From Chloroflexota bacterium (GTDB lineage Bacteria; Chloroflexota; Dehalococcoidia; UBA2979): a stretch of 64,000 nucleotides of DNA. The position numbers were made by a program, and so were the translations under genes. How positions within the stretch are numbered: position 1 is the stretch's first letter; each line of letters begins with the position of its first letter. The stretch lies in NCBI GenBank assembly GCA_002718395.1, contig PBEG01000016.1:1003-65002 (forward strand). Direction: 5' to 3'. This document shows positions 9,947 through 55,553 of the stretch, one piece after another. Below the pieces are notes generated by a model that worked only from the letters and a program-made list of their open reading frames with translations, was not told the DNA's origin and ran no database searches.

Positions 9947-9947
9947 A

Positions 9948-22521: not shown

Positions 22522-23501
22522 CAGTTTTCCATTAAGTTAATTATTTTTGACCCTTTTGACTCAAAATTGAATTTCAATTCAAAGAAATCAATCATATTCT
22601 GCCTAAATTCTTCTTGTTTTTCCAGCGGACAGTAAAATAATATGAATCCTCCTCCTCCAGCTCCACATAGTTTTCCTCCAAGAGCGCCTGACTTAATTCC
22701 CCTATCATAAATATCATCAATGCCTGTATTAGAGATCTCACTAGTCAAACTTTTCTTCAGATTCCATCCTTCATGCAATATCTGGCCAAAGTCATCCAAT
22801 CTTCCTCCCTCAAGCGACTCTCTCAATTTATCAGCCTGTCTGACCATTAAATTCATTTGATCAATTTTATTTTTTTTTGAAATTTCTTCATTCTGCTTTT
22901 TTAGAATTTTTGAAGCAGATCTTGTTCCCTCTGTGAAGATCATGATCAAATTTCTATCTAACTCTTCTTTGAGATTATTCTGCATCTTAATAGGTTCAAC
23001 ATTGACTGTTCCGTCAGGAAAAAATTTAATGTGATTCAATCCTCCATATGATGCAGCATACTGATCCTGCTTCCCTATAGGATTTTTCAGACGATCAATT
23101 TCAATGTAACAAGCCTTACTAGCTAATTCCTCTTTAGATAAATTCTCACCAATATAACTATATACAACATTTAGTAGACCAACCGTAAATGAGCTGCTTG
23201 AGCCTAAACCGGTTCCAGATGGAGCATCTGCTATTGAGTTAATATCTATGCCCGTAATGCCTTTCTCTTCCAGTACTGCTTTAAAGATTTGATGTTCAAT
23301 TTCTTCAATAGAGGAAACTAATTCTGTTTTAGAATATTTTAACTGTATCTTCTCTCTGAAAAAGAACGGATGCATAGCGAGATATACATATTTATCAATT
23401 GTTGTACTTACAACAGCTCCTATTTGATCTTGATAGAATGATTGAAGATCAGTTCCCCCTCCGGCAAATGATATTCTAAAAGGCGTTCTTGAAATCAACA
23501 T
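22521..23501 (-). CDS. hddA: GHMP-family sugar kinase, D-glycero-alpha-D-manno-heptose 7-phosphate kinase-like
   Basis: PSGTGLGSSSS GHMP motif, RISFAGGGTD N-terminus. Sits between gmhA and hddC-gmhB. Confidence 0.75.
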   Translation of the reverse strand: MLISRTPFRISFAGGGTDLQSFYQDQIGAVVSTTIDKYVYLAMHPFFFREKIQLKYSKTELVSSIEEIEHQIFKAVLEEKGITGIDINSIADAPSGTGLGSSSSFTVGLLNVVYSYIGENLSKEELASKACYIEIDRLKNPIGKQDQYAASYGGLNHIKFFPDGTVNVEPIKMQNNLKEELDRNLIMIFTEGTRSASKILKKQNEEISKKNKIDQMNLMVRQADKLRESLEGGRLDDFGQILHEGWNLKKSLTSEISNTGIDDIYDRGIKSGALGGKLCGAGGGGFILFYCPLEKQEEFRQNMIDFFELKFNFESKGSKIINLMEN

Positions 23502-24752
23502 TTAAATAATACTCTTAACTTGATCTAATAGTGCATTTTTGGAATTGGTTTCAATTAGAAAACTTTCTTTCAAGCCAGCATTTTTACCGGCATTTATATC
23601 TCTTTGATGATCTCCAATCATATATGATTCATCTAGTTTAATATTCCATTCATTAGATGCTGAAAAAAACATTCCAGGTGCAGGCTTTCTACATTCACAC
23701 TTGATCTTATATTCTTTTCTCTCCTCAGGAAAACCTCCATCTGGATGATGAGGGCAGAAGTATATTGCATTTATAAAAGCCCCCTGATTACCCAAAAGGG
23801 TTTCTAATTTTTTATGGATATCATCTAACTCTTCTAGAGAACACAAGTTTCTGGCAATAACAGGCTGATTAGTAATAACGATAGCCATAAAATTGCTTTT
23901 ATTTATGAGCTTGATTGCCTCTACAACTCCATCAATTAACTCAATTTTATTAATATCATGCAATAGATCAACTTCTTCATTAATAACACCATCTCGATCC
24001 ATGAATATTGCTTTTTGTGGACTATCCAAACTCATAAAGGTCAATTTTTTTTGAGAAATATCTTCGCAAACTTGGGTAAATCTGATTGGTGTTCCCATGT
24101 CCTTTATGTATTCGGGTGTATTATATGCGAAGAGATGGAAGCCTTCTTCTATAGACCGTATTAATATATCACTCACAAGATCAGACTTTTGATTCTCTGG
24201 AATCAAACTGAGCATCTTGGGTGAGAGAATATAAACACCTGCATTGACCAGGTTTTTATAAATCAGTGCATCATTATGAGGCTTTAATAAAAAACTAGTA
24301 ATATGATTTTCATGATTTGTCTCTATTAGATCTGAATCAAATGGATGATCATTAGGATGAACCAACAAAGTGGAATCTGAATTTTCTCTTTTATGATAAT
24401 CAATCATTCTTTGTATATTAAATTCCATAATAATATCTCCATAGAATAGGAGAAAATCTTCATTTAATTGATTTCTTAGATTACCTAGAGCTCCTGCAGA
24501 TCCTAGAGGAACATCTTCCTGATGATAAGAAATCATAATATCCCAGTCTGAACCATCACCAAAATAATCTTTTATTTTTTGGCCTAGATATCCAATACAA
24601 ATGATTATTTCTCTGATTCCATACTTTTTTGCGAGCAATATTTGTCGCTCTAAAACTGGTATTCCTTCAACTTTGATTAGAGGTTTAGGAATATCAACAG
24701 AGATTTCGGAAACTCTGGTACCCTTTCCTCCTGCCATTATGACTAATTTCAT
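23502..24752 (-). CDS. bifunctional heptose-1-phosphate nucleotidyltransferase / HAD-type D,D-heptose 1,7-bisphosphate phosphatase (HddC::GmhB fusion)
   Basis: N-terminal MAGGKGTR nucleotidyltransferase fold. C-terminal HAD-IIIA domain FMDRDGVIN...GD with CPHHP..C.CRKP zinc motif typical of GmhB. Confidence 0.8.
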   Translation of the reverse strand: MKLVIMAGGKGTRVSEISVDIPKPLIKVEGIPVLERQILLAKKYGIREIIICIGYLGQKIKDYFGDGSDWDIMISYHQEDVPLGSAGALGNLRNQLNEDFLLFYGDIIMEFNIQRMIDYHKRENSDSTLLVHPNDHPFDSDLIETNHENHITSFLLKPHNDALIYKNLVNAGVYILSPKMLSLIPENQKSDLVSDILIRSIEEGFHLFAYNTPEYIKDMGTPIRFTQVCEDISQKKLTFMSLDSPQKAIFMDRDGVINEEVDLLHDINKIELIDGVVEAIKLINKSNFMAIVITNQPVIARNLCSLEELDDIHKKLETLLGNQGAFINAIYFCPHHPDGGFPEERKEYKIKCECRKPAPGMFFSASNEWNIKLDESYMIGDHQRDINAGKNAGLKESFLIETNSKNALLDQVKSII

Positions 24753-29840: not shown

Positions 29841-30626
29841 TTAATTCAAAAAAAATTTTCTAATTCTATGCTGAAAATAATTTGGAATGATTTTTCTAAA
29901 AATCCAAGATCTTAGTCTCACATACTGGTAATAAATATCCTCTTTGATTGTCATAATCTTTATATTTTTTGATGAAACAGAAAACCCCTCCTTATAAAGA
30001 TATTTATATACCTTCCTAACCCATTTGCCTTTGACAACTCCATTCAGGTATGGGAGCACTGTGGTATCTACTGAATAGAAATCTGAATACTTATTGCTTC
30101 TCTCGCTTCCATATATTTCAAAATCCCATGCAGACTCCTCAGCTTTAAGAAGATCTTTGAGTACTTCTTTTTTAAAAAGAGACCATACAGTTGCGGTTCG
30201 ATATAATCTATCTTCATGTATCCTTCCAATTCCCTTTAAGATTTTATAATCATATTTAGGAAGAGGGCTTAATCTTAGACAGCTCCAATTGTTCTCAACA
30301 GCTAATTCTGAAAAATAAATTACTTTCTTTGTGTCTATTTCTTTGTAGAGAAAAATGTCATCAAATATCATAAGAATATATTCTTGATCAATTTTCTCAA
30401 TACACTTAATTATATTGTCAGACCAAGAGGTTTCGCTCCCAATTTTAAGTGGAATAAAAGGCTCTATACTTGGAGTCTTTTCATTTGTCCCTAAATAAAT
30501 TTTAAATGGGCAATCAGGCCAAAAATTTTTATATGTTTCTGAGAGAGGCAGCCATAAATCTTCAGCTCCATCATAGCTACATATTAGAATACAAATATCA
30601 TTTGATAGGTTATTTGAGTTAGGCAT
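29841..30626 (-). CDS. hypothetical protein, possible GT-A-like glycosyltransferase
   Basis: ICILICSYDG...MIFDDIF resembles a GT-A DxD core. No firm family assignment. Confidence 0.3.
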   Translation of the reverse strand: MPNSNNLSNDICILICSYDGAEDLWLPLSETYKNFWPDCPFKIYLGTNEKTPSIEPFIPLKIGSETSWSDNIIKCIEKIDQEYILMIFDDIFLYKEIDTKKVIYFSELAVENNWSCLRLSPLPKYDYKILKGIGRIHEDRLYRTATVWSLFKKEVLKDLLKAEESAWDFEIYGSERSNKYSDFYSVDTTVLPYLNGVVKGKWVRKVYKYLYKEGFSVSSKNIKIMTIKEDIYYQYVRLRSWIFRKIIPNYFQHRIRKFFLN

Positions 30627-34764: not shown

Positions 34765-35694
34765 CTAGTTATTATTCTTAAGCCAATCTACAGTTTTAGC
34801 TAAACCATCCTTTAATGAAGTTCTCTGGCAAAAGCCTATTTTCTTGATCTTAGAAATATCTCCATACCACTTAGGAACATCACCTGGGAAAGATTCTCCA
34901 GAAGTTTTAATCTCTATTTCTGAACAGTCCATTTCTATAGCTATTAATTGAGCCAGATCTAATAGCTTGACTTGCTCGCCACTTGCCAGATTATAATCCT
35001 CACCTGCTTCACCACTGGATGCAATTATTTCAAGGCCATGAACTGCATCATCAATATAAAGATAATCCCTTATTTGTTCTCCATCGCCCAGGATTTCTAA
35101 GCTTTTATTATTGTTCTGTATCTTTTTGACAATATCGTGTATCGCAAACCGATTCATTCCTAAACCATAAACACTGAACATTCTTGCAATTCTAACATCT
35201 AATCCATAGCATCGATTGTATACAAAGCAATAAGACTCACCTGCAACTTTGGCTGCCCCATAAGGAGATGATGGTTTTACATAAGATTTTTCAGAAACTG
35301 GCAATTCATTTGTTGTATCAAATATGGATGCAGTAGATGGAAAGATTACTCTACAGTTAAATCGTCTAGCTGACTCAAGCACTTGAAAAAGTCCATACAA
35401 TGTATTTTGGAAATCATTAGAAGGATCATTTACTGAACTAGCAACATTAGCATTAGCTGCCATGTGAAAAATTACTGTATCTTTAGTGAGAAATTGATCG
35501 AGTATATTCTCTTCTTTTATATCAAATATTTTAGATTTGTTGTGAGTTCTTTCGCATGGCAATTGGTCAATAGCCACTATCTCGATAGATTGCTTATGAA
35601 GACTTTCAACCAATGCATTGCCTATAAAACCTGAGGCACCAGTTATTAGGGCTCTTCTTATTTCATGATTTAAGTTAATGTCAGACTCTTTCAC
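34765..35694 (-). CDS. NAD-dependent sugar epimerase/dehydratase (GalE-like extended SDR)
   Basis: ALITGASGFIGNAL, YGAAKVAGE YxxxK. 309 aa. Confidence 0.65.
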   Translation of the reverse strand: MKESDINLNHEIRRALITGASGFIGNALVESLHKQSIEIVAIDQLPCERTHNKSKIFDIKEENILDQFLTKDTVIFHMAANANVASSVNDPSNDFQNTLYGLFQVLESARRFNCRVIFPSTASIFDTTNELPVSEKSYVKPSSPYGAAKVAGESYCFVYNRCYGLDVRIARMFSVYGLGMNRFAIHDIVKKIQNNNKSLEILGDGEQIRDYLYIDDAVHGLEIIASSGEAGEDYNLASGEQVKLLDLAQLIAIEMDCSEIEIKTSGESFPGDVPKWYGDISKIKKIGFCQRTSLKDGLAKTVDWLKNNN

Positions 35695-36617
35695 GGTATT
35701 TCAATTACTTCCTTCACCTTTACATTCTTTTGAAGATCTATATCAAATATCTCTTCATTTTGAATATTTCTTAACCTTTCCTCAAAATTGTCAAAAGTCA
35801 ACTTGCCATTCTTATCCTTATATTCTCTAAAATTAGCTTTCTGATAGGCTTCTTGAGGAGAGAGGACAGTTAAATTTGATAGCAAGTCATTCCTTACAAA
35901 AAAGATGTTGTTGCCAGCAGTATTCCCTGCCACTAGACAATAGCCTTTTCTCTTTGCAAGATCATCCAAAGCTTTAATTGATGCGCCATAAAGAACTCCT
36001 GAGTGATGTTCTGAGTGCCTAGTGAAGTCATTTCTATAACAAGTAGTTACTTTGGCATCAGGACCAAAAATACTATTGTATTCGCATATTACTATTCTAG
36101 GGTGAAATGATTCTATAGATTCCCAAATCCAATAGTCATTACCATCTATGTCAATAGAAAGTATTCCTAAATCAGGATCGATTCCACTATCACTGAGAAT
36201 CGACTCAATATTCTTCTTAGTGATAAATGCATTTTCAGCCTTGATATTATGTGCCCAATAAATTTGATCTTGTTTTAGATAATCAATGTCTGACCTATTT
36301 CCATCTATAACTAGGCCTGACCAATAATTATTTACTAGAAGGAATCTTGTATTTGATTGCAAATAATTCTCAACGCCAAATTCAACGAATACTTTATTCT
36401 TAATCTCAATCTTGTTAATGAGATACTGGATAATTCCATCTTCACCCCATTGAGAAAAGACTCTGAATTCACTATCAGATATAGTGAGATCTGAATCATT
36501 TATTTGACGTGCTTCTATTCTTCCTAAAGCCTCTTGAATCAAGTTAATTTTTGAAAGTAGTTTCTTAAAAAAACGGATATATTTTCTTGGATCAATGTAA
36601 TTAAATAATTTCTTCAT
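35691..36617 (-). CDS. hypothetical protein, possible SAM-dependent methyltransferase-like fold
   Basis: FSQWGEDGII and VFVEFGVENY motifs only. No confident family. Confidence 0.25.
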   Translation of the reverse strand: MKKLFNYIDPRKYIRFFKKLLSKINLIQEALGRIEARQINDSDLTISDSEFRVFSQWGEDGIIQYLINKIEIKNKVFVEFGVENYLQSNTRFLLVNNYWSGLVIDGNRSDIDYLKQDQIYWAHNIKAENAFITKKNIESILSDSGIDPDLGILSIDIDGNDYWIWESIESFHPRIVICEYNSIFGPDAKVTTCYRNDFTRHSEHHSGVLYGASIKALDDLAKRKGYCLVAGNTAGNNIFFVRNDLLSNLTVLSPQEAYQKANFREYKDKNGKLTFDNFEERLRNIQNEEIFDIDLQKNVKVKEVIEIP

Positions 36618-36683: not shown

Positions 36684-37253
36684 TTATGGGTTATCCAATT
36701 TTTTTATGAGTTTTGCTGGATTTCCAGCAAAAAAACAGTCTTCTGGGACATTATCTAAAACAAGACTATTTGCACCAATAATCGACCTCTCTCCTATTTT
36801 TACACCCTTCATAATCGTAACATTTGCACCAATCCATACATCATCCTCAATAACTACTTCCTCTTCTTTTAAATCTATTTCTTTAGGTTGGCCTTTTGTA
36901 ATAATCTCTTTGTATTGAAGGTGTCTATCTATTGGATCTTTTGGATGTGTATCATTGTCAAAAATATTGCAATTATGGCTTATCAGGACTCTATTGCCAA
37001 TCTTTATTGATTTTCCAGACCATATATGAGTATTTCTTCCAACAAAACAATAATCTCCTATGATGATCTTGCCTCCATGACCAAGTATCATAAATAATTC
37101 AGCTCTAACATGAGTATTATCACCAATTACTAAATCTTCCTTTCTACCATTAACATTAGACATATCTACACAAGGATAGATCACGCTATTTTTCCCTAAA
37201 ATATATGGCCTTTTAGGAAATAATTTTCGAAAAATTCGCTTTAAGAAATTCAT
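36684..37253 (-). CDS. left-handed beta-helix (hexapeptide-repeat) acetyltransferase
   Basis: Repeated [LIV]GxxxxI hexapeptide units (IGDNTHV, IGDYCFVGRNTHI, IGANVTI, IGERSIIGANSLV). 189 aa, WbbJ/maltose-acetyltransferase-like. Confidence 0.75.
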   Translation of the reverse strand: MNFLKRIFRKLFPKRPYILGKNSVIYPCVDMSNVNGRKEDLVIGDNTHVRAELFMILGHGGKIIIGDYCFVGRNTHIWSGKSIKIGNRVLISHNCNIFDNDTHPKDPIDRHLQYKEIITKGQPKEIDLKEEEVVIEDDVWIGANVTIMKGVKIGERSIIGANSLVLDNVPEDCFFAGNPAKLIKKLDNP

Positions 37254-38606
37254 CTACTCTCTCTCACAGATAATATCATCGATCCATTCTAATTCCTTTT
37301 TGGAGGATTCAAAGTCAGATATATAATCTCCTAAAGTAGTCATCTGCTTTTTAAGTATTTCTTGATTATACTCATCATCACTAAGTCTCCTATTCAACTC
37401 CACAAAAAGATCATCAATATAAACCTTAGATTCTGGTAGATTATCATAATAAACAAATGGGTTATTATATAGCTCGGGAATATCTAAACAAATTACCGAA
37501 GTTTCGGTCATAAAAGCCTCCAACGCAATACTAGAGCTTATTAGCATTAGAATCTTGCTCTTTTTTAAAATGAGCTCATTATTATCAGTATGAATTTCAT
37601 AATTCATTTTGAAGGCATCTTTATAAATACTCTTCAAAAAATAATCCTCCCAATATTCTTGATTCATGGATGGGTGAAGTTTAAGAATAAATGTATATTC
37701 TTCTTGTTCGGTTGACTCCATCTCAGATAAAAGTTTTGGGATCTTGTTCAAAAGAAAATGATTTAGTTCATCACTTCTTGGATTAACAGCTAAAGTCAAA
37801 TAATTCTTTAATTTTTTAGAGTTACTTTCTAAATAATGATTATGAATATCAGTACCGAAGACCTTGATCTCAGATTTCTTTATTTGATCAACAAAATCAC
37901 GCTTTGTTTTTTCACCCCAAACAACTAGATAATCTGAAATCGTGTAATCATACATTCGATTTGTTGGGGCCATCTGGCCATGCTGATGTGTTATGGTTGG
38001 AATATTTTTTAATTGTGATGATTCAGTAAAAACTCTCTCAAATAAATGTAAATCACAAACTGTTAAGGTAACTTTAGGTTTATACTCATCTATCAATTTC
38101 TTAGAAAAAGAAATATATCTTTTTACCTTTGAGAGAATGAAGGACTCTTCTGCAGTCAAATGCTTAAAAGTCCAAATATATTTATCAAAACAAATCCCGG
38201 ATACTTTCATGTATATGCAAGCGATACTTTCCGATGTGTAATAATTAAAAACACTTTTACAATCTGTAACAATCAAGATTTCTCTTTTGTCAGTGACTTC
38301 TGAAATCAGATTATTCAATACAGGAAATGCTCTATGTGAATCTGGATAATTACTAACAAAAAGATATTTCTTTTTGAAATTTGAATTCAGAGTAAGAATC
38401 TTATTTTTTTTAAGCTCTGACCTTCCAATAGAGAAAGTCCCAAAGTTCGAAAGACTCCATAGCAATTCTTTGATCTTTTTTTTGAACATATCTTGTGGCT
38501 TATGTGACGAAATATGAGCAGAACCGTAAAAAGTTATCAAATAATCACTTAAGTTGAATCCTTCAAAAAAAATTGGATTAACTTTCATATGATCAGGTGT
38601 TTTCAT
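37254..38606 (-). CDS. putative GT-B capsule-synthesis-family glycosyltransferase (KpsS-like; candidate nonulosonic-acid transferase)
   Basis: 450 aa, no TM, Rossmann-like alternation. Position next to Pse-pathway genes. Family call is weak (by eye). Confidence 0.3.
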   Translation of the reverse strand: MKTPDHMKVNPIFFEGFNLSDYLITFYGSAHISSHKPQDMFKKKIKELLWSLSNFGTFSIGRSELKKNKILTLNSNFKKKYLFVSNYPDSHRAFPVLNNLISEVTDKREILIVTDCKSVFNYYTSESIACIYMKVSGICFDKYIWTFKHLTAEESFILSKVKRYISFSKKLIDEYKPKVTLTVCDLHLFERVFTESSQLKNIPTITHQHGQMAPTNRMYDYTISDYLVVWGEKTKRDFVDQIKKSEIKVFGTDIHNHYLESNSKKLKNYLTLAVNPRSDELNHFLLNKIPKLLSEMESTEQEEYTFILKLHPSMNQEYWEDYFLKSIYKDAFKMNYEIHTDNNELILKKSKILMLISSSIALEAFMTETSVICLDIPELYNNPFVYYDNLPESKVYIDDLFVELNRRLSDDEYNQEILKKQMTTLGDYISDFESSKKELEWIDDIICERE

Positions 38607-38718
38607 GCTAATAACTTTCTAGTCAAAAAATGGAGGATGAGATTTATTTAAATCAGACAGTCTATAGGTCCCTTTTTATATTTGGTAGATATCTAAATTA
38701 TGAATTATAGATCTTGGA

Positions 38719-40374
38719 CTAATTTGGGCTGAATATTTGCTCCTTATCAAGCCTACAAAGCCTATCATTTTCTTTGTCAGCTATAATTATGGATCTATCA
38801 TTAAGTCTATGAATCTTAACAGGGTTATTCCAATTATAGTCTTCCCTTCCTTCTGGATTGATGTTCTTGATAACTTTCCCACTATAATCTATTGCTAGAA
38901 TCTGATGTTCTCCTCTTACACATAAAAGAATAATATCATTAAAAGGGCAGACAGCTCTGATCACATGAATGTCACTTTTCAAGAAAGAAAAGTCTATTGT
39001 ATTAATTAATTTCAGTTCTGAATTAAATTCATAAACAATTAACTTATCAAAATCTGCTGTGAAAATATGATTATCATCTCGGATTGATATGGTCTTTATA
39101 AGTATCCTTTTATTTCCAGATACTTCGGCCATATTAACTTCGTCTTGGAAAATTCCCTCAAAATCAACCTTCAATATTCTTCTATTTAAAGTATCGGCTA
39201 TAAAAATATACCCTGAATCAGATGCGTCCATATCTTGTGGGTCATTTAGAGCTGGCTGACCAGAGTAAGAGCTATGTTTAATTAGATTATTGTTTTTTAA
39301 TTTATATATATTCAATTCAGACTCGTTTGAGATCCTTCTTTCAATAATCGCAAAAAGACTTTCTTCGCCATGCTGATGGAAACAAATTGATGAAGGTCTC
39401 TCAAGCTTCTTATCTTGGATTTTAAGAACGTCTAGATATTCAAGATCCTTATTAAATAACTGAATAACCCCATTCCCCCTATCAGCAATAAATAATCTAC
39501 TTTCAGAATCTGATGTAACTCCAGAAGGTCTATTGAGCTCCCCAGGAAAATATTGTCTTTTGATAAAACTTTCTAGGTGCTTTGAGTCTAGATCCATTTT
39601 CATAATTCTGTCATTGTTCATGTCACATATATAAAGAAAATTACCATCGACAAGACCAGAAATTGGTAAATCGAAAAAATTAATCTCATGTCCCTTGGAA
39701 CCAATCTGGAAAAGGAAGTTCATCTCATGATCAAAAAATTGCACTAGGTAATTCTTATTATCAAATACAATTAAATATCTTTCTGTAATACTTATATCAG
39801 ATGGATTTCTTACTTTCCCATATCCTCCTCTCCCGAATTCTAAGTGTTCTGTATATTTGATTTTTTCTTTAGTTAGTTCAATCCTAATGAGTTTTGGGGA
39901 ATCAGAATCAAGCATAAAGATGCTTTTTTTCTTTATTATCATTGAGACAATATCTTTATTTTGATTTAGATCAGAGTAATCAAAGTGAGCAGTAAGTAAA
40001 TCCTCTTTCTCATCAAATTTCATAATGACTGAATTCTCGGTATCACAAAGAAATATTGCTCCGTGTTCCTCAGAGCAATTAATTGAGCTGTAATTGCCAT
40101 GCTTTAGTTTTATGCTTTTCTGCTGTATGAGCTTTAGATCAAATTGCCTTAACAATTTATTTTCTACATCTAAGACATATATATTTTTATTATTTATAGA
40201 GAATAAAGATGATTCGTGAAGACTTAATTCATCAAAACTTTTTGATGCCAAACAGACGTCGTCGTCCAGTACAAATATTTTCTCTTCAGGTGGTCCACAA
40301 ATTATTATCATTTTTCTATCGCTTGATAGAAGTATCTGCTTCGGTCTTGTGAATCCTTTTATTTCAACTGCCAT
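38719..40374 (-). CDS. NHL-repeat beta-propeller protein (cytoplasmic, 551 aa)
   Basis: Recurrent NHL-type blades (DRGNGVIQLF, NDRIMKMD, LNRRILKVD, NDRLCRLD). No signal peptide. Confidence 0.55.
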   Translation of the reverse strand: MAVEIKGFTRPKQILLSSDRKMIIICGPPEEKIFVLDDDVCLASKSFDELSLHESSLFSINNKNIYVLDVENKLLRQFDLKLIQQKSIKLKHGNYSSINCSEEHGAIFLCDTENSVIMKFDEKEDLLTAHFDYSDLNQNKDIVSMIIKKKSIFMLDSDSPKLIRIELTKEKIKYTEHLEFGRGGYGKVRNPSDISITERYLIVFDNKNYLVQFFDHEMNFLFQIGSKGHEINFFDLPISGLVDGNFLYICDMNNDRIMKMDLDSKHLESFIKRQYFPGELNRPSGVTSDSESRLFIADRGNGVIQLFNKDLEYLDVLKIQDKKLERPSSICFHQHGEESLFAIIERRISNESELNIYKLKNNNLIKHSSYSGQPALNDPQDMDASDSGYIFIADTLNRRILKVDFEGIFQDEVNMAEVSGNKRILIKTISIRDDNHIFTADFDKLIVYEFNSELKLINTIDFSFLKSDIHVIRAVCPFNDIILLCVRGEHQILAIDYSGKVIKNINPEGREDYNWNNPVKIHRLNDRSIIIADKENDRLCRLDKEQIFSPN

Positions 40375-40387
40375 TTTTGATGAGTAT

Positions 40388-41284
40388 CTAATCTAATGAT
40401 TTAGGATAGTAAATTTTTCCTTTTATATAATGATCCAAATAATGTTTTTCAAAATTAATGCCTTGTCTAATTGCCTCTTTCCTCATTCTAAATGGAGGCT
40501 CGAGACCAATATCTAGTAATACATATCCGCTGGTTTCCAATATGAGGTCAAACTTTATTAGATATTCCTCTAATTTTAGGCTCTTCATGATCTTTTTTAG
40601 TGAGCCTATTATTCCGAAATCTCTAATTTCGTCATGAAATTTATGAGTAAGAATCCCGGTTTCAAAATCTAAAACATTAAATCTATCTCCATATACGTTT
40701 ACACGTAATGAAACTCCTGGATGCTCTGGTTGTAAGATATATTTTTCCTTAAAATACCTGTCTTTATTCCAATTAAAGAGTTCAAATGGGATTGAATTTG
40801 CATTAAACCTATATACATAGTTAGGGTTCTTGCTAAAGTCAGATTTCAACCAATACCAACCATTATCTTTTTCATTGAGTGCATCTTTAAGGGTATCCTC
40901 AGAATCTATATATGAAGTTTCAGGTATAGGCACACCTAAATTAGCGAAATGCTCATAATATTTCTCTTTATTTAAGCAAATTTCCACTGACTTACTTGGG
41001 ATATATTTAATAGAAAAAGTTTCACAAAACAATGCTGCGCTCAAGTGGGCAAACTGAGCAGATGCAGTAAAAACTAGATCATCTTCAGAAAAATCCTCAG
41101 ATCTACCTATCTCTATCAGTTCGCTGATAGAGTCATACCCACACTGAAAAAATTTATCGCAGTACAGCCTCCCTGGTGCATTTTCATTAATATCTGTCCC
41201 AATTATTTTTAAATTATAATCTTTTATTGTCTCTAAGTATGGGATCTGAGCAAAATTGCAACCTAAAAAAAGTATCTTTTTCAT
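40388..41284 (-). CDS. ATP-grasp domain protein
   Basis: N-terminal Rossmann-like pre-ATP-grasp, central ATP-grasp features (YILQPEHPGVSLRVNVYGD). 298 aa. 4-bp overlap with the upstream ATP-grasp gene. Confidence 0.5.
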   Translation of the reverse strand: MKKILFLGCNFAQIPYLETIKDYNLKIIGTDINENAPGRLYCDKFFQCGYDSISELIEIGRSEDFSEDDLVFTASAQFAHLSAALFCETFSIKYIPSKSVEICLNKEKYYEHFANLGVPIPETSYIDSEDTLKDALNEKDNGWYWLKSDFSKNPNYVYRFNANSIPFELFNWNKDRYFKEKYILQPEHPGVSLRVNVYGDRFNVLDFETGILTHKFHDEIRDFGIIGSLKKIMKSLKLEEYLIKFDLILETSGYVLLDIGLEPPFRMRKEAIRQGINFEKHYLDHYIKGKIYYPKSLD

Positions 41285-42369
41285 ATTCCCGCCTTAATTA
41301 TTTCTTGCTCTAGTTCCTCTTGTGTATTTGCAGAAAATGTCTTAAAACCTCTTTTCCTATTTATCGAATCTACCTTTTTAAAGAGTATTGCTGTTGGTTT
41401 AATATAATCACTTAAGTCTGGTACATCGCCTCCAGCCATAACATTAAGTGCCGTTTCAAGAAAGTCATATGAAAGAGCTTTTGGATAGAAGCCTTCAATA
41501 AGAAGGTCACCACCAAAATCTAAATGTATTTCGATTAAATGTAATTTCCCCTTTTGGTCTTGCCTAAAATTAATTAATAAGGGTGACCTAGATATTTTAT
41601 AGCTATCTATCAAATATTTAGCAAGTTGATGAGCTTCCTTTTGCAATTGGTTATCTTTGGAATCTGAAAATGTTTTAAAACCTTGGCCTGATATTGTCCC
41701 ATCACTAAGATTAAGCTTATTTATCTCCTCTAATAAACAAATAGGCAATAATTCACTATCGGAGACTAAACTTATTAGTGAATAATCCTTTCCTGGAAGA
41801 TACTCTTCAATAAGAATAGTTTCATCCATTGTTGCTTTCCTGGCAAGAATGATAGCTTTTTCAATATCTTCTTTTTTTTTCACCAAAGTAACGCCACTTT
41901 TACCGATTAAACTAAGAGATGGCTTTATAATTACTGGATAATCAAATACAAAGTCATTAAGTGAACTCCCTTTTTTTATGATCTTAAATTCAGGTGTGGG
42001 AATATTGTTTGGGCATGATTCCCTGAGTTTGTACTTATGAACAATTTTATCAGCACTATCTATAGGTAAAGATGGTATTTCAAAATACTCAGAAATCTTA
42101 CTTGCAACGATTACTGGTAAGCCAGAGCTTCTATTTAAAACTCCAGAAACACGATACTTCTCTTTAATCTTTGATAAATCGTAAAGCATTTCATTGAATG
42201 AATATGTGCTTTTCTGAATATAATGGTCAACGTATTTTAGCCCAATTGCTGAAGGATCTTTATCTATTGCAATTATAATATACCCGAGTTTTTTCGCTGA
42301 TAAAATTAATGGTAATTGTGATGGGCCAGCTGCAATACAGATAATTGCTTCCTGTTCAATATTTGTCAT
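41281..42369 (-). CDS. ATP-grasp domain ligase
   Basis: VIIKPSLSLIGKSGVTLV, ILIEEYLPGKDYSL, HLIEIHLDFGGD: ATP-grasp B and C subdomains. 362 aa. Confidence 0.55.
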   Translation of the reverse strand: MTNIEQEAIICIAAGPSQLPLILSAKKLGYIIIAIDKDPSAIGLKYVDHYIQKSTYSFNEMLYDLSKIKEKYRVSGVLNRSSGLPVIVASKISEYFEIPSLPIDSADKIVHKYKLRESCPNNIPTPEFKIIKKGSSLNDFVFDYPVIIKPSLSLIGKSGVTLVKKKEDIEKAIILARKATMDETILIEEYLPGKDYSLISLVSDSELLPICLLEEINKLNLSDGTISGQGFKTFSDSKDNQLQKEAHQLAKYLIDSYKISRSPLLINFRQDQKGKLHLIEIHLDFGGDLLIEGFYPKALSYDFLETALNVMAGGDVPDLSDYIKPTAILFKKVDSINRKRGFKTFSANTQEELEQEIIKAGI

Positions 42370-42385: not shown

Positions 42386-43066
42386 TTAGAGATTTTGATA
42401 TATTTGTTCCGCTCTTTTCCAATCATCAAGATCATCAATATCAACAACTCTCCAGCTAGGTATCAAAATTACTGTCGCATTAAGATGATAGCCTTTTGAC
42501 TTTTCTATCCAAGTTTTTGGTTTTGCCCAATAAAATTGTCCAGCATCATGAAGTGCAACTGGCAAGTCTTGAGATCTAGATGAGTAATACTCTGGGTAAA
42601 GCATTTTTAATCCTCCGGATTCTAATTTCTCAAAGGATCTAAATATTGGATAATTGAAAGTAGTTGCTGCGAATACATTTTCCCAATCCCCATTCTTAAT
42701 CAATTCATAACCTTGAAGAATATCTTTTGATTGTACTAGGGGTGATGTGGGATAAATGGAACAAACATAATCTAAATCGTACCCAATTCTTATTAACTCA
42801 CTTACGGCATGACCAATAACCTCATGAGTTCCAGTAAAGTCATCCGAAATTTCAGATGGTCTCATGAATGGTACCTCGGCACCATATTTCATCGAAATCT
42901 CTGCTATTTCTTCATCATCTGTAGAAACAATAATCTTATCGAATATACTTAGAGCCCTAGCCACCTCTATCGAATAAGCAATTATTGGCTTTCCCAAAAA
43001 ATTCTTTATATTTTTCCTTGGAATTCTCTTGCTTCCACCTCTAGCAGGGATAATTGCTATATTCAC
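42386..43066 (-). CDS. pseF: acylneuraminate/pseudaminate cytidylyltransferase (CMP-NeuAc synthetase family)
   Basis: IAIIPARGGSKRIPRKN N-terminal signature. 226 aa. Translationally coupled to pseC. Confidence 0.8.
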   Translation of the reverse strand: MNIAIIPARGGSKRIPRKNIKNFLGKPIIAYSIEVARALSIFDKIIVSTDDEEIAEISMKYGAEVPFMRPSEISDDFTGTHEVIGHAVSELIRIGYDLDYVCSIYPTSPLVQSKDILQGYELIKNGDWENVFAATTFNYPIFRSFEKLESGGLKMLYPEYYSSRSQDLPVALHDAGQFYWAKPKTWIEKSKGYHLNATVILIPSWRVVDIDDLDDWKRAEQIYQNL

Positions 43067-44238
43067 AATAATTCTCTTAAAGCCTCAATAACAAATTTCT
43101 GTTCATCAGATGTCATAGTTGGGAACAAAGGAAGCGTTATTACTCTTTGACTATAATCTTCTGCATTCAAACAATACCCCTCCTTAAAACCTAAATCTTT
43201 ATAGAAAGGATGAAGGTGAACTGGCATGTAATGTATATTTACGCCAATACCTCGATCTCTCAATAAGTTGAATAATTCTTCTCTCGATTTATTGGCCTCA
43301 TTCTGATCGACTAGCACAACATATAGATGAAATGCAGATAAATTTTCTCTTCTTACAAATGGTAACTGTAAGGGGAGATCTGATAATTGATTATTATATT
43401 GTTGAGCAAGGAAGTTTCTTTTTTGAACATAATCATCCACTCTTTTCAGCTGACTAAGCCCCAGTGCTGCGTTTAGGTCTGGCATTCTATAATTGAAGCC
43501 CAAAACATGTTGTTCGTAAGACCAAATTGGAGAGTTTGTTTGTAACATTCTATTCTTGTCTCTTGTTATCCCATGAGACCTATATAGTTCCATCTTATCT
43601 CTCAATTTTTTATCATTTGTCAGACCGATACCGCCTTCTGCGGTGGTAATAATTTTTACTGGATGGAAACTAAATATAGTGATATCAGACCAAAGACAAT
43701 TACCAATCTTTTGACCATTCCTACTTGCACCTATGGCATGTGCAGCATCTTCAATGATCTTGATTTCATATTTTTCTGTAAGCTCTCTTATTATCTCTTG
43801 ATCACAAGGCTGCCCTGCAAATGCAACTGTTACAAGAATCTTTGGTAATATCTTTTTCTTTTCAGCAATTTTAAGTCTTCTTTTTAATTGCTCAATATCA
43901 ATATTATATGTGCTCTTATCAATATCTATGAAATCAACTTTAGCGCCACAATATAAAGCACAATTTGCAGAGGCAACAAAGGTATTTGGAACTGTCCATA
44001 GTATATCTTCTGGGCCCAGGTTGAGAGCTAAACATGCCAGATGTAATGAGCTTGTAGCTGAGTTAGATGCAACCGCATATTTAGCATCTACATATTCTGC
44101 TACGCTATCTTCAAAGCTCCCCACTATTGGTCCCTGAGTAATGAAATCAGACTTCAAGACATCTATAACAGATTTAATATCATCTTCAGTTATATCCTGC
44201 CTTCCGTAAGGTATTGGTTGGTGTTTTCTTTTATTCAT
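43063..44238 (-). CDS. pseC: DegT/DnrJ/EryC1-family PLP aminotransferase (UDP-4-keto-6-deoxy-HexNAc 4-aminotransferase)
   Basis: AAT fold type I. Conserved Lys region (FSFHPVKIITTAEGG). Adjacent to pseB. Confidence 0.8.
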   Translation of the reverse strand: MNKRKHQPIPYGRQDITEDDIKSVIDVLKSDFITQGPIVGSFEDSVAEYVDAKYAVASNSATSSLHLACLALNLGPEDILWTVPNTFVASANCALYCGAKVDFIDIDKSTYNIDIEQLKRRLKIAEKKKILPKILVTVAFAGQPCDQEIIRELTEKYEIKIIEDAAHAIGASRNGQKIGNCLWSDITIFSFHPVKIITTAEGGIGLTNDKKLRDKMELYRSHGITRDKNRMLQTNSPIWSYEQHVLGFNYRMPDLNAALGLSQLKRVDDYVQKRNFLAQQYNNQLSDLPLQLPFVRRENLSAFHLYVVLVDQNEANKSREELFNLLRDRGIGVNIHYMPVHLHPFYKDLGFKEGYCLNAEDYSQRVITLPLFPTMTSDEQKFVIEALRELL

Positions 44239-44283: not shown

Positions 44284-45285
44284 CTAGATTTTTCCTATCT
44301 TATCTTTATTCTTTTTTATCCAATCTCTTAATTGATCTACCTTCATCCAGTCTTTGTTTGAATCGGATGTATAGACAAAATCTTTATTTACTTTTTTTCC
44401 ACCTTTAGTATTAGGGGCATCTCCACCCCATTTCCCTATTGAAGGAAGAATCTTATAATAGTCAGTAAACTCATATGTATGATCAGAATCTTCAAATCCA
44501 ATCATCTGCTCATGAACTTTCTCACCAGGTCTTATGCCAATTATCTTGTGAGGAAGTCCAGGTGCAATTGCCTCAGCAATTTCAGTTACCTTCATCGAAG
44601 GTATTTTTTTAACAAATATTTCTCCTCCTGCCATTTCGTCAAATGCTTTCCAAACTAAGTCCACTCCTTGCTCAAGAGTGATCATAAATCGAGTCATTCT
44701 TATATCAGTTATTGGTATTTCCTCTGAAGACTCTGCTAGATTCATGAAGAATGGAATGATAGAACCTCTTGATCCAAGTACATTCCCATATCTCACAACT
44801 CCAAATCTTGTATTATTCGCACCTGCATAATTGTTGCCTGCAATAAATAATTTATCTGATGCTAGCTTTGTCGCTCCATAAAGATTTACAGGATTGCTAG
44901 CCTTATCTGTCGAAAGTGCTACGACTCTTTTAACCTTCTTATCAATGGCTGCATCGATTAAATTCATTGCACCATGAATATTGGTTTTCACACATTCAAA
45001 TGGATTATATTCTGCAGTTGGAACAATCTTTGTAGCAGCCGCATGAACCACGAAATCTATATCGTCGAGTGCTCTGCTGAGTCTCTCTTTATCTCTAACG
45101 TCTCCAATGAAGAATCTAACTCTTTTATCATCTTGATATAACTTTGCCATTTCCCATTGCTTCATTTCATCTCGTGAATATATAACTAAGCGTGATGGAT
45201 TATATTTCTGGAGTGTCATTGGAACAAATGTATGTCCAAATGAACCTGTTCCACCTGTTATAAGGATATTTGAATTTTCTAACAT
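44284..45285 (-). CDS. pseB: UDP-N-acetylglucosamine 4,6-dehydratase (inverting), PseB/FlaA1 family
   Basis: ILITGGTGSFG, YSRDEMKQWEMA, GATKLASDKLF match PseB. 333 aa. Confidence 0.85.
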   Translation of the reverse strand: MLENSNILITGGTGSFGHTFVPMTLQKYNPSRLVIYSRDEMKQWEMAKLYQDDKRVRFFIGDVRDKERLSRALDDIDFVVHAAATKIVPTAEYNPFECVKTNIHGAMNLIDAAIDKKVKRVVALSTDKASNPVNLYGATKLASDKLFIAGNNYAGANNTRFGVVRYGNVLGSRGSIIPFFMNLAESSEEIPITDIRMTRFMITLEQGVDLVWKAFDEMAGGEIFVKKIPSMKVTEIAEAIAPGLPHKIIGIRPGEKVHEQMIGFEDSDHTYEFTDYYKILPSIGKWGGDAPNTKGGKKVNKDFVYTSDSNKDWMKVDQLRDWIKKNKDKIGKI

Positions 45286-45295: not shown

Positions 45296-47107
45296 TCAAT
45301 TAATAATTGTTGCCATTTCTAAAAATTCTTTATTGTTTTCTAGTAAGTATTCATAATTGCCACTATCAACTACATGTCCATTATCAATAAGATAAAGTTT
45401 GTCACATTTTTGAACGGTGCTTAGTCTATGGGCAACTATTATTATTGTCTTTGTCTTCGCAAAATTATTTATAGCATCCATAACTAGTGCTTCAGTAACA
45501 TTATCAAGGGAGCTAGTTGCCTCATCAAAAATCAAAATCTCACTCTCTCTGTATAGGGCTCTTGCTATACCAATTCTTTGTCTTTGCCCACCAGATAGCT
45601 GCATTCCATTTTGACCAACCTGAGTATCTAACCCATCTGGCAAAGTTGAAATAAACTCATCCAAATTCGCCAACATAACTGAATTTTGAATTTTAGATTT
45701 ATTTATCTCATTCATTGATTTCCCAAAGGCTATATTCTCTTTGATTGAAGCATCAGATAAAAATATAGATTGGGGGACAAAACCAATCTTTTCCTGCATC
45801 AGGCTAATATTATTTTTATGAATTACAAATTCTCCATCAATTACAATTTCACCACTATCTGGCGTTATAAGGCCTAATATAATGTCGATTATTGTTGATT
45901 TTCCTGAGCCTGATGAACCTACTATTCCAATTGTTTTATTAACTGGAATCTCAATATTGAGATTATTAAGTGCTGAATTTAATTTACCTGGATATGAAAA
46001 ACTTATATCCCTTAACTCGATTGTTTGTCCAATTTTAAATTGATCAAAATTATATTCATTTTCTTTTTCAATTAGTAACTTTTCATTTTGGCTATTCTTA
46101 AAATCTTCTCTGATACTATCAAATGCTGATAAATTACCTTGAATCGTTGAAATGCTAGCATAGACTTGTTGAAAAGCAGGTAGCAGCTTAACTCCTGCTA
46201 ATGCATAAACAGATAAAACGGGTACAACTCCACTAAGAGATCCGTCATGAGACCTGATTAGGTAAAGTATAAAAATTATAATTGAGCTAAATGCAATCAG
46301 TTCCATAAAGTATCTAGGAATCTGAGACAGCGCAACAATTGAACCTTGCCCTCTCGCAAACACTCTTCCAGATCTTTTGAATCTTTTCATATATTTCTCT
46401 TGAATACGAAGAAATAATACATCTCTAATTCCACCTAAGCCCTCAGAAAGCTCTTTGTATCTTTCCGTATGAGAATTTGAAACATCCTTACTATTTTTAG
46501 AGAGCCTGGATCTAATCATTTGATATATAGAAAGATATGCAATGCCAAAGATTAATAGTGCAATTATAGCAACATATGGATCATAAATTACCATGCTCGT
46601 TATTATGAATATTGCTGTAAATATCCTTGCATTAAGCATGATAAGAGGATTAATAATCCCAGACTTTACTCTATTGGTTTCGGCAGTTATTTGTTTAATT
46701 AGATTAGCGCTGTTTTCTTTAGAGTGAAAAAGCCAGTTTTTATTTAGATAATAATTAAATAGTGTATTTTGAATGCTCACTCCCAGTTCTTGGCCAAATA
46801 GTGATAGAACCCATATTGTATATGTAGAAATCATTGTTCCAATAGCCAAGATACTTATAACTATTCCCCCTAGGAATAATACAAACTCACTTGTATCCCC
46901 TGATCCAGACCATTCATATACGTTAGCTAAAATATTTTCACCATATAAAGTTCCAGGATCAGTAACCACCAACATAAATGGTCCTATTGATGCTACCGTT
47001 ATCAACTCAAAACCAGCAGTTATGATTGCGAGAAGTTGTATCAGAAAGAATTTCTTCCTCTGGATAGATCCTAGAAGCAAAATGAGTTCAGTAACTTTTT
47101 TTATCAT
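45296..47107 (-). CDS. ABC exporter, fused permease-ATPase (MsbA/PglK/Wzk-like candidate lipid-linked-oligosaccharide flippase)
   Basis: N-terminal 6-TM domain, Walker A GIVGSSGSGKST, signature LSGGQRQRIGIARAL, Walker B ILIFDEATS. 603 aa. Confidence 0.8.
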   Translation of the reverse strand: MIKKVTELILLLGSIQRKKFFLIQLLAIITAGFELITVASIGPFMLVVTDPGTLYGENILANVYEWSGSGDTSEFVLFLGGIVISILAIGTMISTYTIWVLSLFGQELGVSIQNTLFNYYLNKNWLFHSKENSANLIKQITAETNRVKSGIINPLIMLNARIFTAIFIITSMVIYDPYVAIIALLIFGIAYLSIYQMIRSRLSKNSKDVSNSHTERYKELSEGLGGIRDVLFLRIQEKYMKRFKRSGRVFARGQGSIVALSQIPRYFMELIAFSSIIIFILYLIRSHDGSLSGVVPVLSVYALAGVKLLPAFQQVYASISTIQGNLSAFDSIREDFKNSQNEKLLIEKENEYNFDQFKIGQTIELRDISFSYPGKLNSALNNLNIEIPVNKTIGIVGSSGSGKSTIIDIILGLITPDSGEIVIDGEFVIHKNNISLMQEKIGFVPQSIFLSDASIKENIAFGKSMNEINKSKIQNSVMLANLDEFISTLPDGLDTQVGQNGMQLSGGQRQRIGIARALYRESEILIFDEATSSLDNVTEALVMDAINNFAKTKTIIIVAHRLSTVQKCDKLYLIDNGHVVDSGNYEYLLENNKEFLEMATIIN

Positions 47108-51949: not shown

Positions 51950-52498
51950 TTATTTTTTATCTATTAACTTAAATGTTTCACTGCTAATGCTATCTTCAAT
52001 ATGATTAAATGGGATCTCTGTTTTTATATCCTGATTCAATATACTCATTAGTACTAAAACTCTATTTTTACTAGTTTTAGTTAGAAATCTAGCATTTAGA
52101 TTCTTAAATATACTTTTATTGATTTCTACCTTTTCCCCCTTTTTATGTTCTTTCTTGATGTCCTTCAAATGACAAATATCATTATGATCTAAATATGAAC
52201 AAATCTTTTGAATTGCCTCCCTAGGAACAAAAGAAAGTTTATTGCCAAATGTGATTAGATTAGAGACTCCTACAGTGGAGTTTATTTTGTTCCAATCTTC
52301 TTTATATAGATGAACTGAAATAAAAATATATCTAGGAAACATTGGCTTGACTTGAGAAGGATGTGAGTCATTAATGCTACTCTTTGAAATCATTGGAAGA
52401 AGTGTCATAAAACCTTGATTTGTAAGGTTCTTTTGAGCCTCAACTTCACTTCCTGGCTTAGTATATGCGAGTAACCATTTTTTATTCTTATGATCCAA
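51950..52498 (-). CDS. rfaH: NusG-family operon-specific antiterminator, RfaH ortholog
   Basis: NGN domain KKWLLAYTKPGSE..LLPMIS..PMFPRYIFISV and KOW-like KKGEKVEINKSIFKNLNARF align well with E. coli RfaH. Confidence 0.75.
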   Translation of the reverse strand: MDHKNKKWLLAYTKPGSEVEAQKNLTNQGFMTLLPMISKSSINDSHPSQVKPMFPRYIFISVHLYKEDWNKINSTVGVSNLITFGNKLSFVPREAIQKICSYLDHNDICHLKDIKKEHKKGEKVEINKSIFKNLNARFLTKTSKNRVLVLMSILNQDIKTEIPFNHIEDSISSETFKLIDKK

Positions 52499-52553
52499 GA
52501 TGAGTTTATTGACTTAGTTATATCAAAGCTGTAAAAGTTATTAACTTAAGATA

Positions 52554-55415: not shown

Positions 55416-55553
55416 GTAATTATTTCAATAATACTTCTTTTTTTTAAATCAACTTTTTCGAGTGATAGTATCTTATATAAAGAGTATATAAAAACAAATT
55501 TATATTGTAAGAGATACACTTTTTTAGACATATCTGCTATCAAGAGGGACTCT

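Follow-up and report, generated by a model that had tools for sequence, protein, structure and literature searches.

A conserved pair of ATP-grasp proteins in Pse-type gene sets of marine bacteria and a possible ligase-based variant of the pathway

The two adjacent ATP-grasp proteins described here, AG362 and X298, truly belong to nonulosonic-acid gene sets of the pseudaminic-acid (Pse) type, in which they are conserved, as supported by their recurrence across metagenomic loci. The region that encodes them is best explained as part of a variant Pse pathway; it lies in a capsule or O-antigen cluster of 48 kb from an uncultured marine Gram-negative bacterium. In the variant that we propose, and to which we give an even chance, PseH would be replaced by L-amino-acid-ligase (LAL)-type ATP-grasp enzymes that N-acylate the sugar. 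The neighboring NHL-repeat protein, NHL551, accompanies the module as an optional component.

Every gene of the preliminary description was found at its given position in the window, by which we mean the whole 64,000-nt stretch analyzed (GC content 34%), and all features discussed below lie on its minus strand. The pseB-pseC-pseF set reported beside the block was borne out by NCBIfam scores that exceed the equivalog cut-offs for the inverting UDP-GlcNAc 4,6-dehydratase PseB (44284-45285; TIGR03589, 528.6 bits against 407.75), the aminotransferase PseC (43063-44238; TIGR03588, 515.7 bits against 423.5) and the CMP-pseudaminic acid synthetase PseF (42386-43066; TIGR03584, 293.8 bits against 205.7). 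These genes are followed, in order, by AG362, X298, NHL551, Y450 and Hexa189. Overlooked in that first account were a PseI-like protein, a PseG-like protein and a third ATP-grasp ligase ~27 kb downstream; the pathway genes are thus split into two blocks ~27 kb apart within one cluster, whose context is that of a Wzz/Wzy/Wza polysaccharide cluster.

The second block encodes the thiamine-diphosphate enzyme TPP572, which resembles the acetolactate synthase large subunit (11899-13617; PF02775, PF02776 and PF00205; TIGR00118 at 412 bits, under its cut-off), the FabG-like short-chain reductase SDR242 (11164-11892; PF13561 and FabG-type NCBIfam families) and the third ATP-grasp ligase, LAL387, which carries an L-amino-acid-ligase C-terminal domain (9948-11111; PF18603 LAL_C2, 54.8 bits, and PF02655). 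Downstream lie a short PseI/NeuB-type nonulosonic acid synthase of 282 aa, NeuB282 (9098-9946; PF03102, 192 bits), in which the C-terminal SAF domain is absent and the PseI score (TIGR03586, 176.8 bits) falls below the cut-off of 340.25; a divergent PseG-like UDP-sugar hydrolase, V313 (8150-9091; TIGR03590, 61.3 bits, E 1e-16, under the equivalog cut-off of 153.55); and GH57_675, with a GH57-like N-terminal domain (6172-8199; PF03065, 69 bits). Among loci of at least 15 kb, homologs of NeuB282 and LAL387 occur in 15 and 13 of 18, respectively. TPP572, a possible supplier of an acyl precursor, is linked to LAL387 homologs in many loci, and GH57_675 homologs accompany the NeuB/LAL sub-block in several (L004, L030, L085, L093, L100 and others).

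That two translationally coupled ATP-grasp proteins follow PseF, as had been noted at the outset, is upheld by gene structure, domain matches, profile alignment and fold comparison alike. The stop codon of AG362 (41281-42369, 362 aa) and the start codon of X298 (40388-41284, 298 aa) share a 4-nt ATGA overlap (...GGA ATA TGA / ATG AAA). AG362 is predicted to be a LAL-type ATP-grasp carboxylate-amine ligase (PF13535 ATP-grasp_4, 35.4 bits against a cut-off of 27), and its family profile matched 58 ATP-grasp chains in the PDB, with 4dim as the best match (2e-25) and the LAL BL00235 (3vot) at 3e-20. Across 40 sequences, conservation reaches at least 90% at K149 and throughout the G156-K157-S158-G159 loop, and neither E280 nor H282 varies; the LAL motif E-V-G-A-R-I-G-G has its aligned counterpart in E-x-(G/H)...GG of AG362, with E280 falling on E-V-G. 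AG362 therefore combines the domain match, the ATP-binding lysine, the flexible glycine-rich loop and the Mg-binding acidic residue of ATP-grasp enzymes, and looks catalytically competent and LAL-like.

X298 appears from profile and model to be a shortened, divergent paralog of AG362. Despite having no Pfam match of its own, it is an ATP-grasp protein by its modeled three-domain fold, because profile-profile alignment to the AG362 family with hhalign gave 98.8% probability (E 4e-17, 280 columns) and the AlphaFold model (pLDDT 94.2) matched 4dim, PurK, RizA and PylC in Foldseek at TMq 0.68-0.76, including 4dim at E 2e-14, RizA at TMq 0.76 and PurK at TMq 0.73. Its family comprises 184 or more clusters (90% identity). 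Residues K147, K152, Q185, D246, D258 and R266 are invariant in it, E187 shows conservation of at least 90%, and all of these correspond to ATP-grasp motif positions; the glycine-rich loop is absent, and X298 may be non-catalytic. Taken together, profiles and models support placing both proteins among the amide-forming ATP-grasp enzymes, in the branch that resembles L-amino-acid ligases.

In a comparison set of about 90 metagenomic loci, which are not phylogenetically independent of one another, an AG362 homolog lies directly upstream of an X298 homolog in 45 of 50 loci, and pse genes (PseB, PseC, PseF or NeuB) are present in 25 of the 26 loci of at least 12 kb. The pair is thus found with pse genes, as the preliminary description had proposed, rather than widely apart from them. 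Carriers of both the pair and pse genes include a Pelagibacter genome (28% GC) and a Desulfobacterales MAG (54% GC). Pelagibacter sp. Uisw_090 is among the carriers of the module. A compact Desulfobacterales operon (L006) reads PseB-PseC-NeuB-PseF/PseG-AG-X-X'-NHL-MT-LAL, and several loci have the order PseF-AG-X-NeuB. Because the arrangement recurs in dozens of independent loci, it is not attributable to chance. A different explanation would be that the three genes merely hitch-hike in a hypervariable polysaccharide island, sharing horizontal transfer with the pse genes without any functional link to Pse. In Pelagibacter, surface-polysaccharide genes form a mosaic in the island that makes up the main hypervariable region (bioRxiv 10.64898/2026.04.03.716430), and gene order around the pair differs from locus to locus; both speak for this reading. 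However, the association outlasts this extensive rearrangement and crosses phyla, from Pelagibacter and the Desulfobacterales MAG to the present window, while adjacency of the pair, the near-constant presence of pse genes in long loci and the overlap of stop and start codons all argue against hitch-hiking, which we regard as very improbable.

The proposal that the ligases act in place of PseH starts from a negative Pfam result: none of the scanned ORFs of 120 aa or longer in the window matched a GNAT family, to which canonical PseH belongs, and no GNAT was found in the compact Desulfobacterales operon either. Since the scans found no GNAT PseH in either gene set and both carry the LAL-type pair, acyl or aminoacyl decoration of Pse, suggested when the locus was first described, is the most economical reading of the sequences. 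In canonical clusters, PseG and PseH occupy the slot that AG-X takes in the order PseF-AG-X-NeuB. By family membership, PseB and PseC are expected to make UDP-4-amino-4,6-dideoxy-beta-L-AltNAc. The canonical role of PseH would then be taken over by the LAL-type carboxylate-amine ligases, in which ATP-grasp chemistry would convert a carboxylic acid to an acyl phosphate for coupling to an amine. We propose that AG362 and X298 would modify the UDP-sugar at its 4-amino group, the future N7 of Pse, with an aminoacyl substituent or an acyl substituent other than acetyl, either jointly as a heteromer or one after the other to assemble an acyl-aminoacyl chain, and that LAL387 with the neighboring TPP572 and SDR242 might supply and attach a further acid. 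The PseG-like hydrolase, the short NeuB/PseI-like synthase and PseF would, again by family membership, complete and CMP-activate the nine-carbon acid.

The pair might instead not stand in for PseH but couple an amino acid or amine to a carboxyl group, either C1 of Pse or a uronic acid of the repeat unit, with CMP-Pse or the lipid-linked glycan as substrate. The ligase genes come after PseF rather than PseC, and could therefore act on CMP-Pse or the finished glycan and not on the UDP-sugar; genes for a UDP-glucose dehydrogenase and for epimerases of the uronate type are present in the cluster as well, and Campylobacter jejuni offers a parallel in Cj1438, an ATP-grasp amidoligase that acts on capsule glucuronate. 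A PseH gene might be located in another part of the genome, or Hexa189 itself could acetylate the 4-amino sugar, by analogy with PglD- and LegH-type enzymes, so that N-acetylation would be covered and PseH would need no replacement in this window. Across loci, however, the pair keeps company with PseB, PseC and NeuB and not with UGD: of the 18 loci of at least 15 kb, 15 encode NeuB and 14 PseC, compared with two for UGD. Moreover, the compact Desulfobacterales operon has the pair with neither uronic-acid genes nor an acetyltransferase, and Hexa189 is kept in the closest relatives only. Carboxyl amidation is for these reasons unlikely, and N-acylation of the sugar remains our preferred reading.

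NHL551 (38719-40374) is a soluble protein of 551 aa with a PF01436 NHL match (45.3 bits against a cut-off of 20), and its predicted structure places 12 blades in two propellers, each of the six-bladed form that defines the NHL-repeat beta-propeller. It has no hydrophobic segment (maximum Kyte-Doolittle value 1.47 in a 19-residue window) and nothing signal-peptide-like at its N-terminus, so that the cytoplasmic location first assigned to this 551-aa NHL protein is plausible. The family is small (~40 clusters with no assigned function), its N-terminal propeller is poorly conserved, and most invariant residues belong to the structural NHL repeat motif. PAL coordinates Zn through three conserved histidines and uses a catalytic tyrosine and arginine, and lactonases of the SMP-30/gluconolactonase/LRE-like group carry a full-length SGL domain whose central site (Glu/Asn/Asn/Asp) binds a divalent metal. 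NHL551 does not fit the PAL pattern, since the family alignment contains no invariant histidine from which a PAL-type triad could be formed. We also considered that NHL551 is a tailoring enzyme on a propeller scaffold (a lyase, lactonase or hydrolase) that processes the acyl group installed by the ligases. The lyase- or lactonase-like role envisaged earlier found no specific support, because neither histidine nor cysteine is invariant in the family and its closest relatives in both sequence and structure are ligand-binding, non-enzymatic TRIM-NHL domains. The poor conservation of the N-terminal propeller argues in the same direction, as does absence of the protein from about half of the pair-carrying loci, and we judge a tailoring function rather doubtful. 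Nor is the three-gene block an obligate unit, because the NHL gene comes after the AG-X pair at no more than 23 of the 44 loci that could be evaluated and its slot elsewhere is sometimes held by an unrelated protein of ~350 aa. NHL551 would tentatively be expected to bind a ligand or partner, either an anionic sugar-nucleotide or lipid-linked intermediate or the exporter, rather than acting as a PAL- or lactonase-type enzyme. Directly upstream of pseB, ABC603 (45296-47107; PF00664 and PF00005) resembles half-transporter ABC exporters of the PglK/MsbA type (NCBIfam PglK 318 bits and MsbA 316 bits, both under cut-off), and an ABC603 homolog is present in nine of 15 loci with NHL and in none of seven without it. 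In the proposed pathway the PglK-like ABC603 would provide export, with NHL551 as an optional binding accessory.

Y450 (37254-38606, 450 aa) is a GT-B-type HP-motif protein and a candidate transferase for the CMP-activated nonulosonic acid. It has no Pfam match of its own and a weak match to TIGR04396; in its family the K-x-H-P motif is invariant, as are H209-G210, W230-G231 and H311-P312, the last of these in 30 homologs. Among 32 distant homologs, 13 matched PF05159, 13 PF04464, six PF07388 and 21 PF02350, families that comprise Capsule_synth (KpsS/KpsC), TagF-type, polysialyltransferase and Epimerase_2 proteins. Y450 thus likely belongs to the HP-motif GT-B superfamily, and the label 'KpsS-like' in the preliminary description is valid at the superfamily level only, because it is the distant homologs that match Capsule_synth and they match several related families besides. 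The start of Hexa189 (36684-37253) abuts the Y450 stop, and its PF00132 Hexapep match (64 bits) agrees with the hexapeptide acetyltransferase placed after the transferase gene from the outset. A WbbJ-like acetyltransferase of left-handed beta-helix fold is predicted (NF007240 WbbJ, 92.6 bits, under cut-off), which would contribute acetylation.

Nonulosonic acids on bacterial surfaces affect phage recognition and grazing. An unannotated, conserved ligase pair in Pse gene sets from many marine metagenomes points to a common surface sugar in very abundant ocean bacteria, and the sequences suggest that this sugar is an undescribed decorated one. If the proposal is correct, ATP-dependent ligation in place of acetyl-CoA transfer would be an alternative to PseH, would widen the known diversification routes for nonulosonic acids and would offer new enzymes for Pse analogues. 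Going further, we speculate that marine bacterioplankton including SAR11 make an undescribed Pse whose amino groups carry an amino-acyl, short peptide-like or hydroxy-acyl chain, with three or four LAL-type ligases replacing PseH and the NHL double propeller, in about half of the lineages, serving either as a tailoring enzyme of a new type or as an assembly adaptor between the sugar and a PglK-like exporter; this fuller picture is tentative and less likely than not.

Compared with the TRIM-NHL proteins TRIM2, TRIM71, Brat and Mei-P26, NHL551 is a bacterial stand-alone tandem propeller devoid of RING, B-box and filamin parts; it also lacks a PAL-like histidine triad and is encoded in a sugar operon. 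We know of no NHL protein for the aminoacyl nonulosonic acid system of Vibrio vulnificus CMCP6. The best profile and fold matches of AG362 and X298 are BL00235 (3vot), RizA (4wd3), PylC (4ffl) and the uncharacterised 4dim, with which they have in common the domain order and the E-x-G...GG motif region; identity is only 12-16%, X298 is ~100 residues shorter and without the glycine-rich loop, and the substrates would presumably be amino sugars, whereas those of LALs are free amino acids. Relative to the canonical PseB-PseC-PseH-PseG-PseI-PseF pathway of Campylobacter jejuni and Helicobacter pylori, the window has clear equivalogs of PseB, PseC and PseF and, in the same cluster, a very divergent PseG-like protein and a short PseI-like protein with no SAF domain; it has no GNAT PseH, adds three ATP-grasp ligases and the NHL double propeller, and is arranged in two blocks. 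In Shewanella oneidensis, where PseB and PseC are present with no clear PseH, PseG, PseI or PseF, the sfmABCDE cluster encodes the PseI-like SfmA, the 3-oxoacyl-ACP-reductase-like SDR SfmC and the ATP-grasp_4 protein SfmE, all three of which are required for a nonulosonic acid with an extra 236-Da substituent (PMC3765264). By gene content this cluster appears analogous to the TPP572-SDR242-LAL387-NeuB282 sub-block, although neither a paralogous ATP-grasp pair nor an NHL protein is reported for it (PMC3765264), and its target is flagellin, whereas the window has the context of a polysaccharide cluster. A precedent for the product is Leg5Ac7AcAla of Vibrio vulnificus CMCP6 (cited in PMC7371886), a 5,7-diamino nonulosonic acid that carries an amino acid in amide linkage at N7; this is the product type that we propose for the window, on a backbone that is legionaminic there and would be pseudaminic here.

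Between ~3.9 and 51.5 kb of the window every gene is on the minus strand, and together these genes make up a single long surface-polysaccharide cluster (GC ~0.33). In the direction of transcription it begins with wzz, rmlB, rmlD, rmlA, rmlC and a PglK/MsbA-like ABC half-transporter, continues through PseB, PseC, PseF, the 362-aa ATP-grasp protein AG362, its 298-aa neighbor X298, the 551-aa NHL-repeat protein NHL551, the 450-aa candidate transferase Y450 and the hexapeptide acetyltransferase Hexa189, and ends with glycosyltransferases, gmd/fcl, methyltransferases and a Wzy-like protein. PseB, PseC and PseF each scored above their NCBIfam equivalog cut-offs, the AG362 stop and X298 start share an ATGA overlap, 13 nt separate the X298 stop from the NHL551 start, and hydrophobic segments are absent from AG362, X298, NHL551 and Y450; the preliminary description was thus correct. 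Promoter and terminator signals scanned over 36-46 kb of the window did not rise above shuffled expectation. Two further conserved cluster proteins gave no match in Pfam or NCBIfam, one of 308 aa (35691-36617, minus strand), which is 69% identical to a gene of locus L003 and conserved in L023 and L024, and one of 261 aa (29841-30626, minus strand). At 21946-24752 (minus strand) a SIS-domain isomerase, a GHMP kinase and an NTP-transferase/HAD fusion are consecutive and look like a nucleotide-activated heptose pathway; they are followed by SDR enzymes and two C-methyltransferases (17408-19918), which suggests that the glycan contains a modified or methylated heptose or deoxysugar.

X298 gave no match in a Pfam search, and its sequence alone retrieved no useful match from the PDB. 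Alignment of its family (48 homologs) to that of AG362 (40 homologs), by profile comparison in hhalign, returned a 98.8% probability over 280 columns (E 4e-17), and its AlphaFold model (pLDDT 94.2) superposes on the ATP-grasp enzymes 4dim, PurK, RizA (TMq 0.76), PylC and the L-amino-acid ligase (LAL) BL00235. On both of these grounds the earlier claim of twin ATP-grasp proteins holds, and X298 is a shortened, divergent paralog of AG362. The best solved relatives of the AG362 family profile are the uncharacterised 4dim (2e-25) and BL00235 (3e-20). Conservation in that family reaches at least 90% at K149 and over a G-K-S-G loop; its E280 is invariant and aligns to the ligase motif E-V-G-A-R-I-G-G. 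X298 lacks the glycine-rich loop, and its family keeps K147, K152, Q185, D246, D258 and R266 invariant; X298 may be either a catalytic enzyme or a partner subunit.

X298 is more widely spread than NHL551, with at least 184 clusters, and a profile scan of metagenomes recovered 80 marine loci, 73 of them unique; a tblastn search of plasmids with X298 gave no match. In 45 of the 50 evaluable metagenome loci, AG362 is the gene immediately upstream of X298. Counts of pse genes and of NHL551 were taken over all de-replicated X298 loci fetched, namely the metagenome loci together with L003-L006, L021 and L022. Of these loci, 26 are at least 12 kb long, and 25 of the 26 carry one or more of PseB, PseC, PseF and NeuB, which bears out the proposed tie between the ATP-grasp pair and pse genes. 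The proposed three-gene block does not hold together as a fixed unit, as NHL551 follows X298 in only 23 of 44 evaluable loci. Where NHL551 is missing, its slot is taken by NeuB, a PseG-like gene, an aminotransferase or, in ~10 loci, an unrelated ~350-aa family located directly after X298 (L033:4271-5317, L047:2984-4060, L093:1963-3006 and about seven more loci). This family has no Pfam match and looks, by eye, like a GT-A-like N-terminal part joined to a small Rossmann-like C-terminal part. The two kinds of locus differ in content: a PglK-like ABC exporter occurs in 9/15 NHL-plus loci vs 0/7 NHL-minus loci (p 0.017, uncorrected for locus relatedness), whereas a TPP/SDR pair occurs in 2/17 vs 8/10, respectively (p 0.0007, likewise uncorrected).

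According to a genome scan, the NHL551 family extends to Candidatus Pelagibacter sp. Uisw_090, at 39% identity, and to a Desulfobacterales MAG, at 27%; each genome has homologs of PseB, PseC, NeuB, AG362 and X298 beside the NHL gene. On long contigs, NHL551 homologs all have the same partner genes. The remaining 14 genome matches of the NHL profile (L007-L020) were rejected as family members, being partial NHL proteins of a generic kind with no pse context. The Desulfobacterales operon (L006:2061-15659, GC 0.54) is compact, with overlapping genes in the order PseB-PseC-NeuB-(PseF+PseG fusion, 591 aa)-AG-X, then a further X298 paralog (326 aa), NHL, a TylF-like methyltransferase, LAL, a mannitol-dehydrogenase-like gene and an IMPase-like gene. 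It holds four ATP-grasp-type genes, the extra X298 paralog included, and contains no acetyltransferase. The trio of LAL, mannitol-dehydrogenase-like and IMPase-like genes also occurs in two Pelagibacter-like contigs.

The preliminary description listed only pseB, pseC and pseF as Pse genes; a second Pse-related sub-block lies at 6172-13617 (minus strand) and recurs in many marine loci. It encodes an acetolactate-synthase-like TPP enzyme, a FabG-like SDR and a third ATP-grasp protein, LAL387, whose C-terminal domain is of the L-amino-acid-ligase type. Also encoded are a short NeuB/PseI-like synthase of 282 aa, which has no SAF domain and scores 176.8 bits (cut-off 340), a PseG-like protein that is divergent (61 bits) and a GH57-like protein. 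PseH belongs to the GNAT family, and no GNAT protein was found among those ORFs of the window that are 120 aa or longer and were scanned with Pfam. The system is a pseudaminic acid pathway by its PseB, PseC and PseF, with PseI and PseG borderline and no PseH among the scanned ORFs. Y450 had no match in Pfam and none among PDB sequences, whether searched alone or as a profile, and has 33 relatives at E ≤1e-10 among 1.84 billion representatives. Since its family keeps H311-P312 invariant, along with a QHG/VWG pair, and more distant relatives match Capsule_synth (KpsS/KpsC), TagF-type, polysialyltransferase and Epimerase_2 models, we regard Y450 as a GT-B protein of the HP-motif kind and, reasonably, as a candidate transferase for the CMP-activated sugar.

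The NHL551 copy in the window is annotated by NCBI as a hypothetical protein, and its family is small, with ~40 full-length clusters of 491-565 aa and 27-97% identity among 5.8 billion sequences; a tblastn search of phages gave no match. The predicted model (pLDDT 91.9, pTM 0.89) has 48 strands, which make up 12 blades of four strands each and are best interpreted as two six-bladed propellers, and the whole model retrieved only tandem WD40 double propellers in Foldseek (TM 0.35-0.45), matches that are uninformative on function. Invariant residues belong mostly to the structural repeat signature (D-x-x-N-x-R and R-P). The family alignment has no invariant His or Cys, and consequently no PAL-type zinc site, and nothing specific speaks for the earlier idea of a PAL-type lyase. 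Assignment of NHL551 as PseG was likewise ruled out, by the PseG-like gene in the window and the PseF-PseG fusion of the Desulfobacterales operon. Invariant polar residues outside the motifs (R299, Q380, D381, N421, R473, R487, K534 and E535), together with stronger conservation of blades 5-12 than of blades 1-4, suggest a specific ligand surface, catalytic or not. Half of the loci do without NHL551, which is therefore dispensable for the core chemistry. A binding or adaptor role is favored, only weakly, because of the TRIM-NHL-like character of the protein, the lack of a metal-binding His and the exporter link; the tailoring enzyme originally proposed is a less likely possibility.

The source MAG carries the NCBI label 'Chloroflexi bacterium', which is doubtful given that the 90% cluster of its Rho protein also includes members labelled Marinimicrobia and Gammaproteobacteria, that the flanks encode Wzz and, at 1195-2577 and 51950-59309, Rho, a NusG paralog, YjbH, an E. 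coli-type GshA (glutamate-cysteine ligase) and a Wza-like exporter of 953 aa rich in SLBB domains, and that GC is 0.34. We infer that a Gram-negative marine lineage is the more likely source. In Pelagibacter, surface-polysaccharide genes dominate a hypervariable region and are thought to affect phage recognition (bioRxiv 10.64898/2026.04.03.716430), a link that would make the AG362-X298 module ecologically relevant. Rfam at gathering threshold gave no match in the window or in the Pelagibacter locus, and thus no rRNA anchor was seen for that region. Our literature search found no report of pseudaminic, legionaminic or nonulosonic acids in SAR11/Pelagibacter and no description of ATP-grasp pairs or NHL proteins in clusters for these acids.

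The stable unit is the AG362-X298 pair, set in a Pse-type pathway that appears to lack PseH. Several loci have the order PseF-AG-X-NeuB, in which the pair fills the slot that carries PseG and PseH in canonical clusters. Ligases of this ATP-grasp branch act through an acyl phosphate to couple a carboxylate with an amine, and the one free amine of the Pse pathway is made by PseC. In the most economical model, every catalytic step of which we infer, the pair would N-acylate this amine, which becomes N7 of Pse, using a group other than acetate. The third ligase and the dedicated acid-supplying enzymes nearby make it plausible that the substituent is acyl-aminoacyl or extended in some other way. 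Aminoacyl nonulosonic acids are known, among them Leg5Ac7AcAla of Vibrio vulnificus (cited in PMC7371886), and the substituted nonulosonic acid of Shewanella flagellin requires an ATP-grasp gene (PMC3765264). In some related loci (P0016 contexts, L021) a single gene of 524-546 aa fuses a cytidylyltransferase with an aldo-keto reductase and is followed by an SDR, as is also described for a Vibrio Pse cluster (PMC7371886), and the second sub-block resembles in composition the Shewanella sfmABCDE flagellin-modification cluster.
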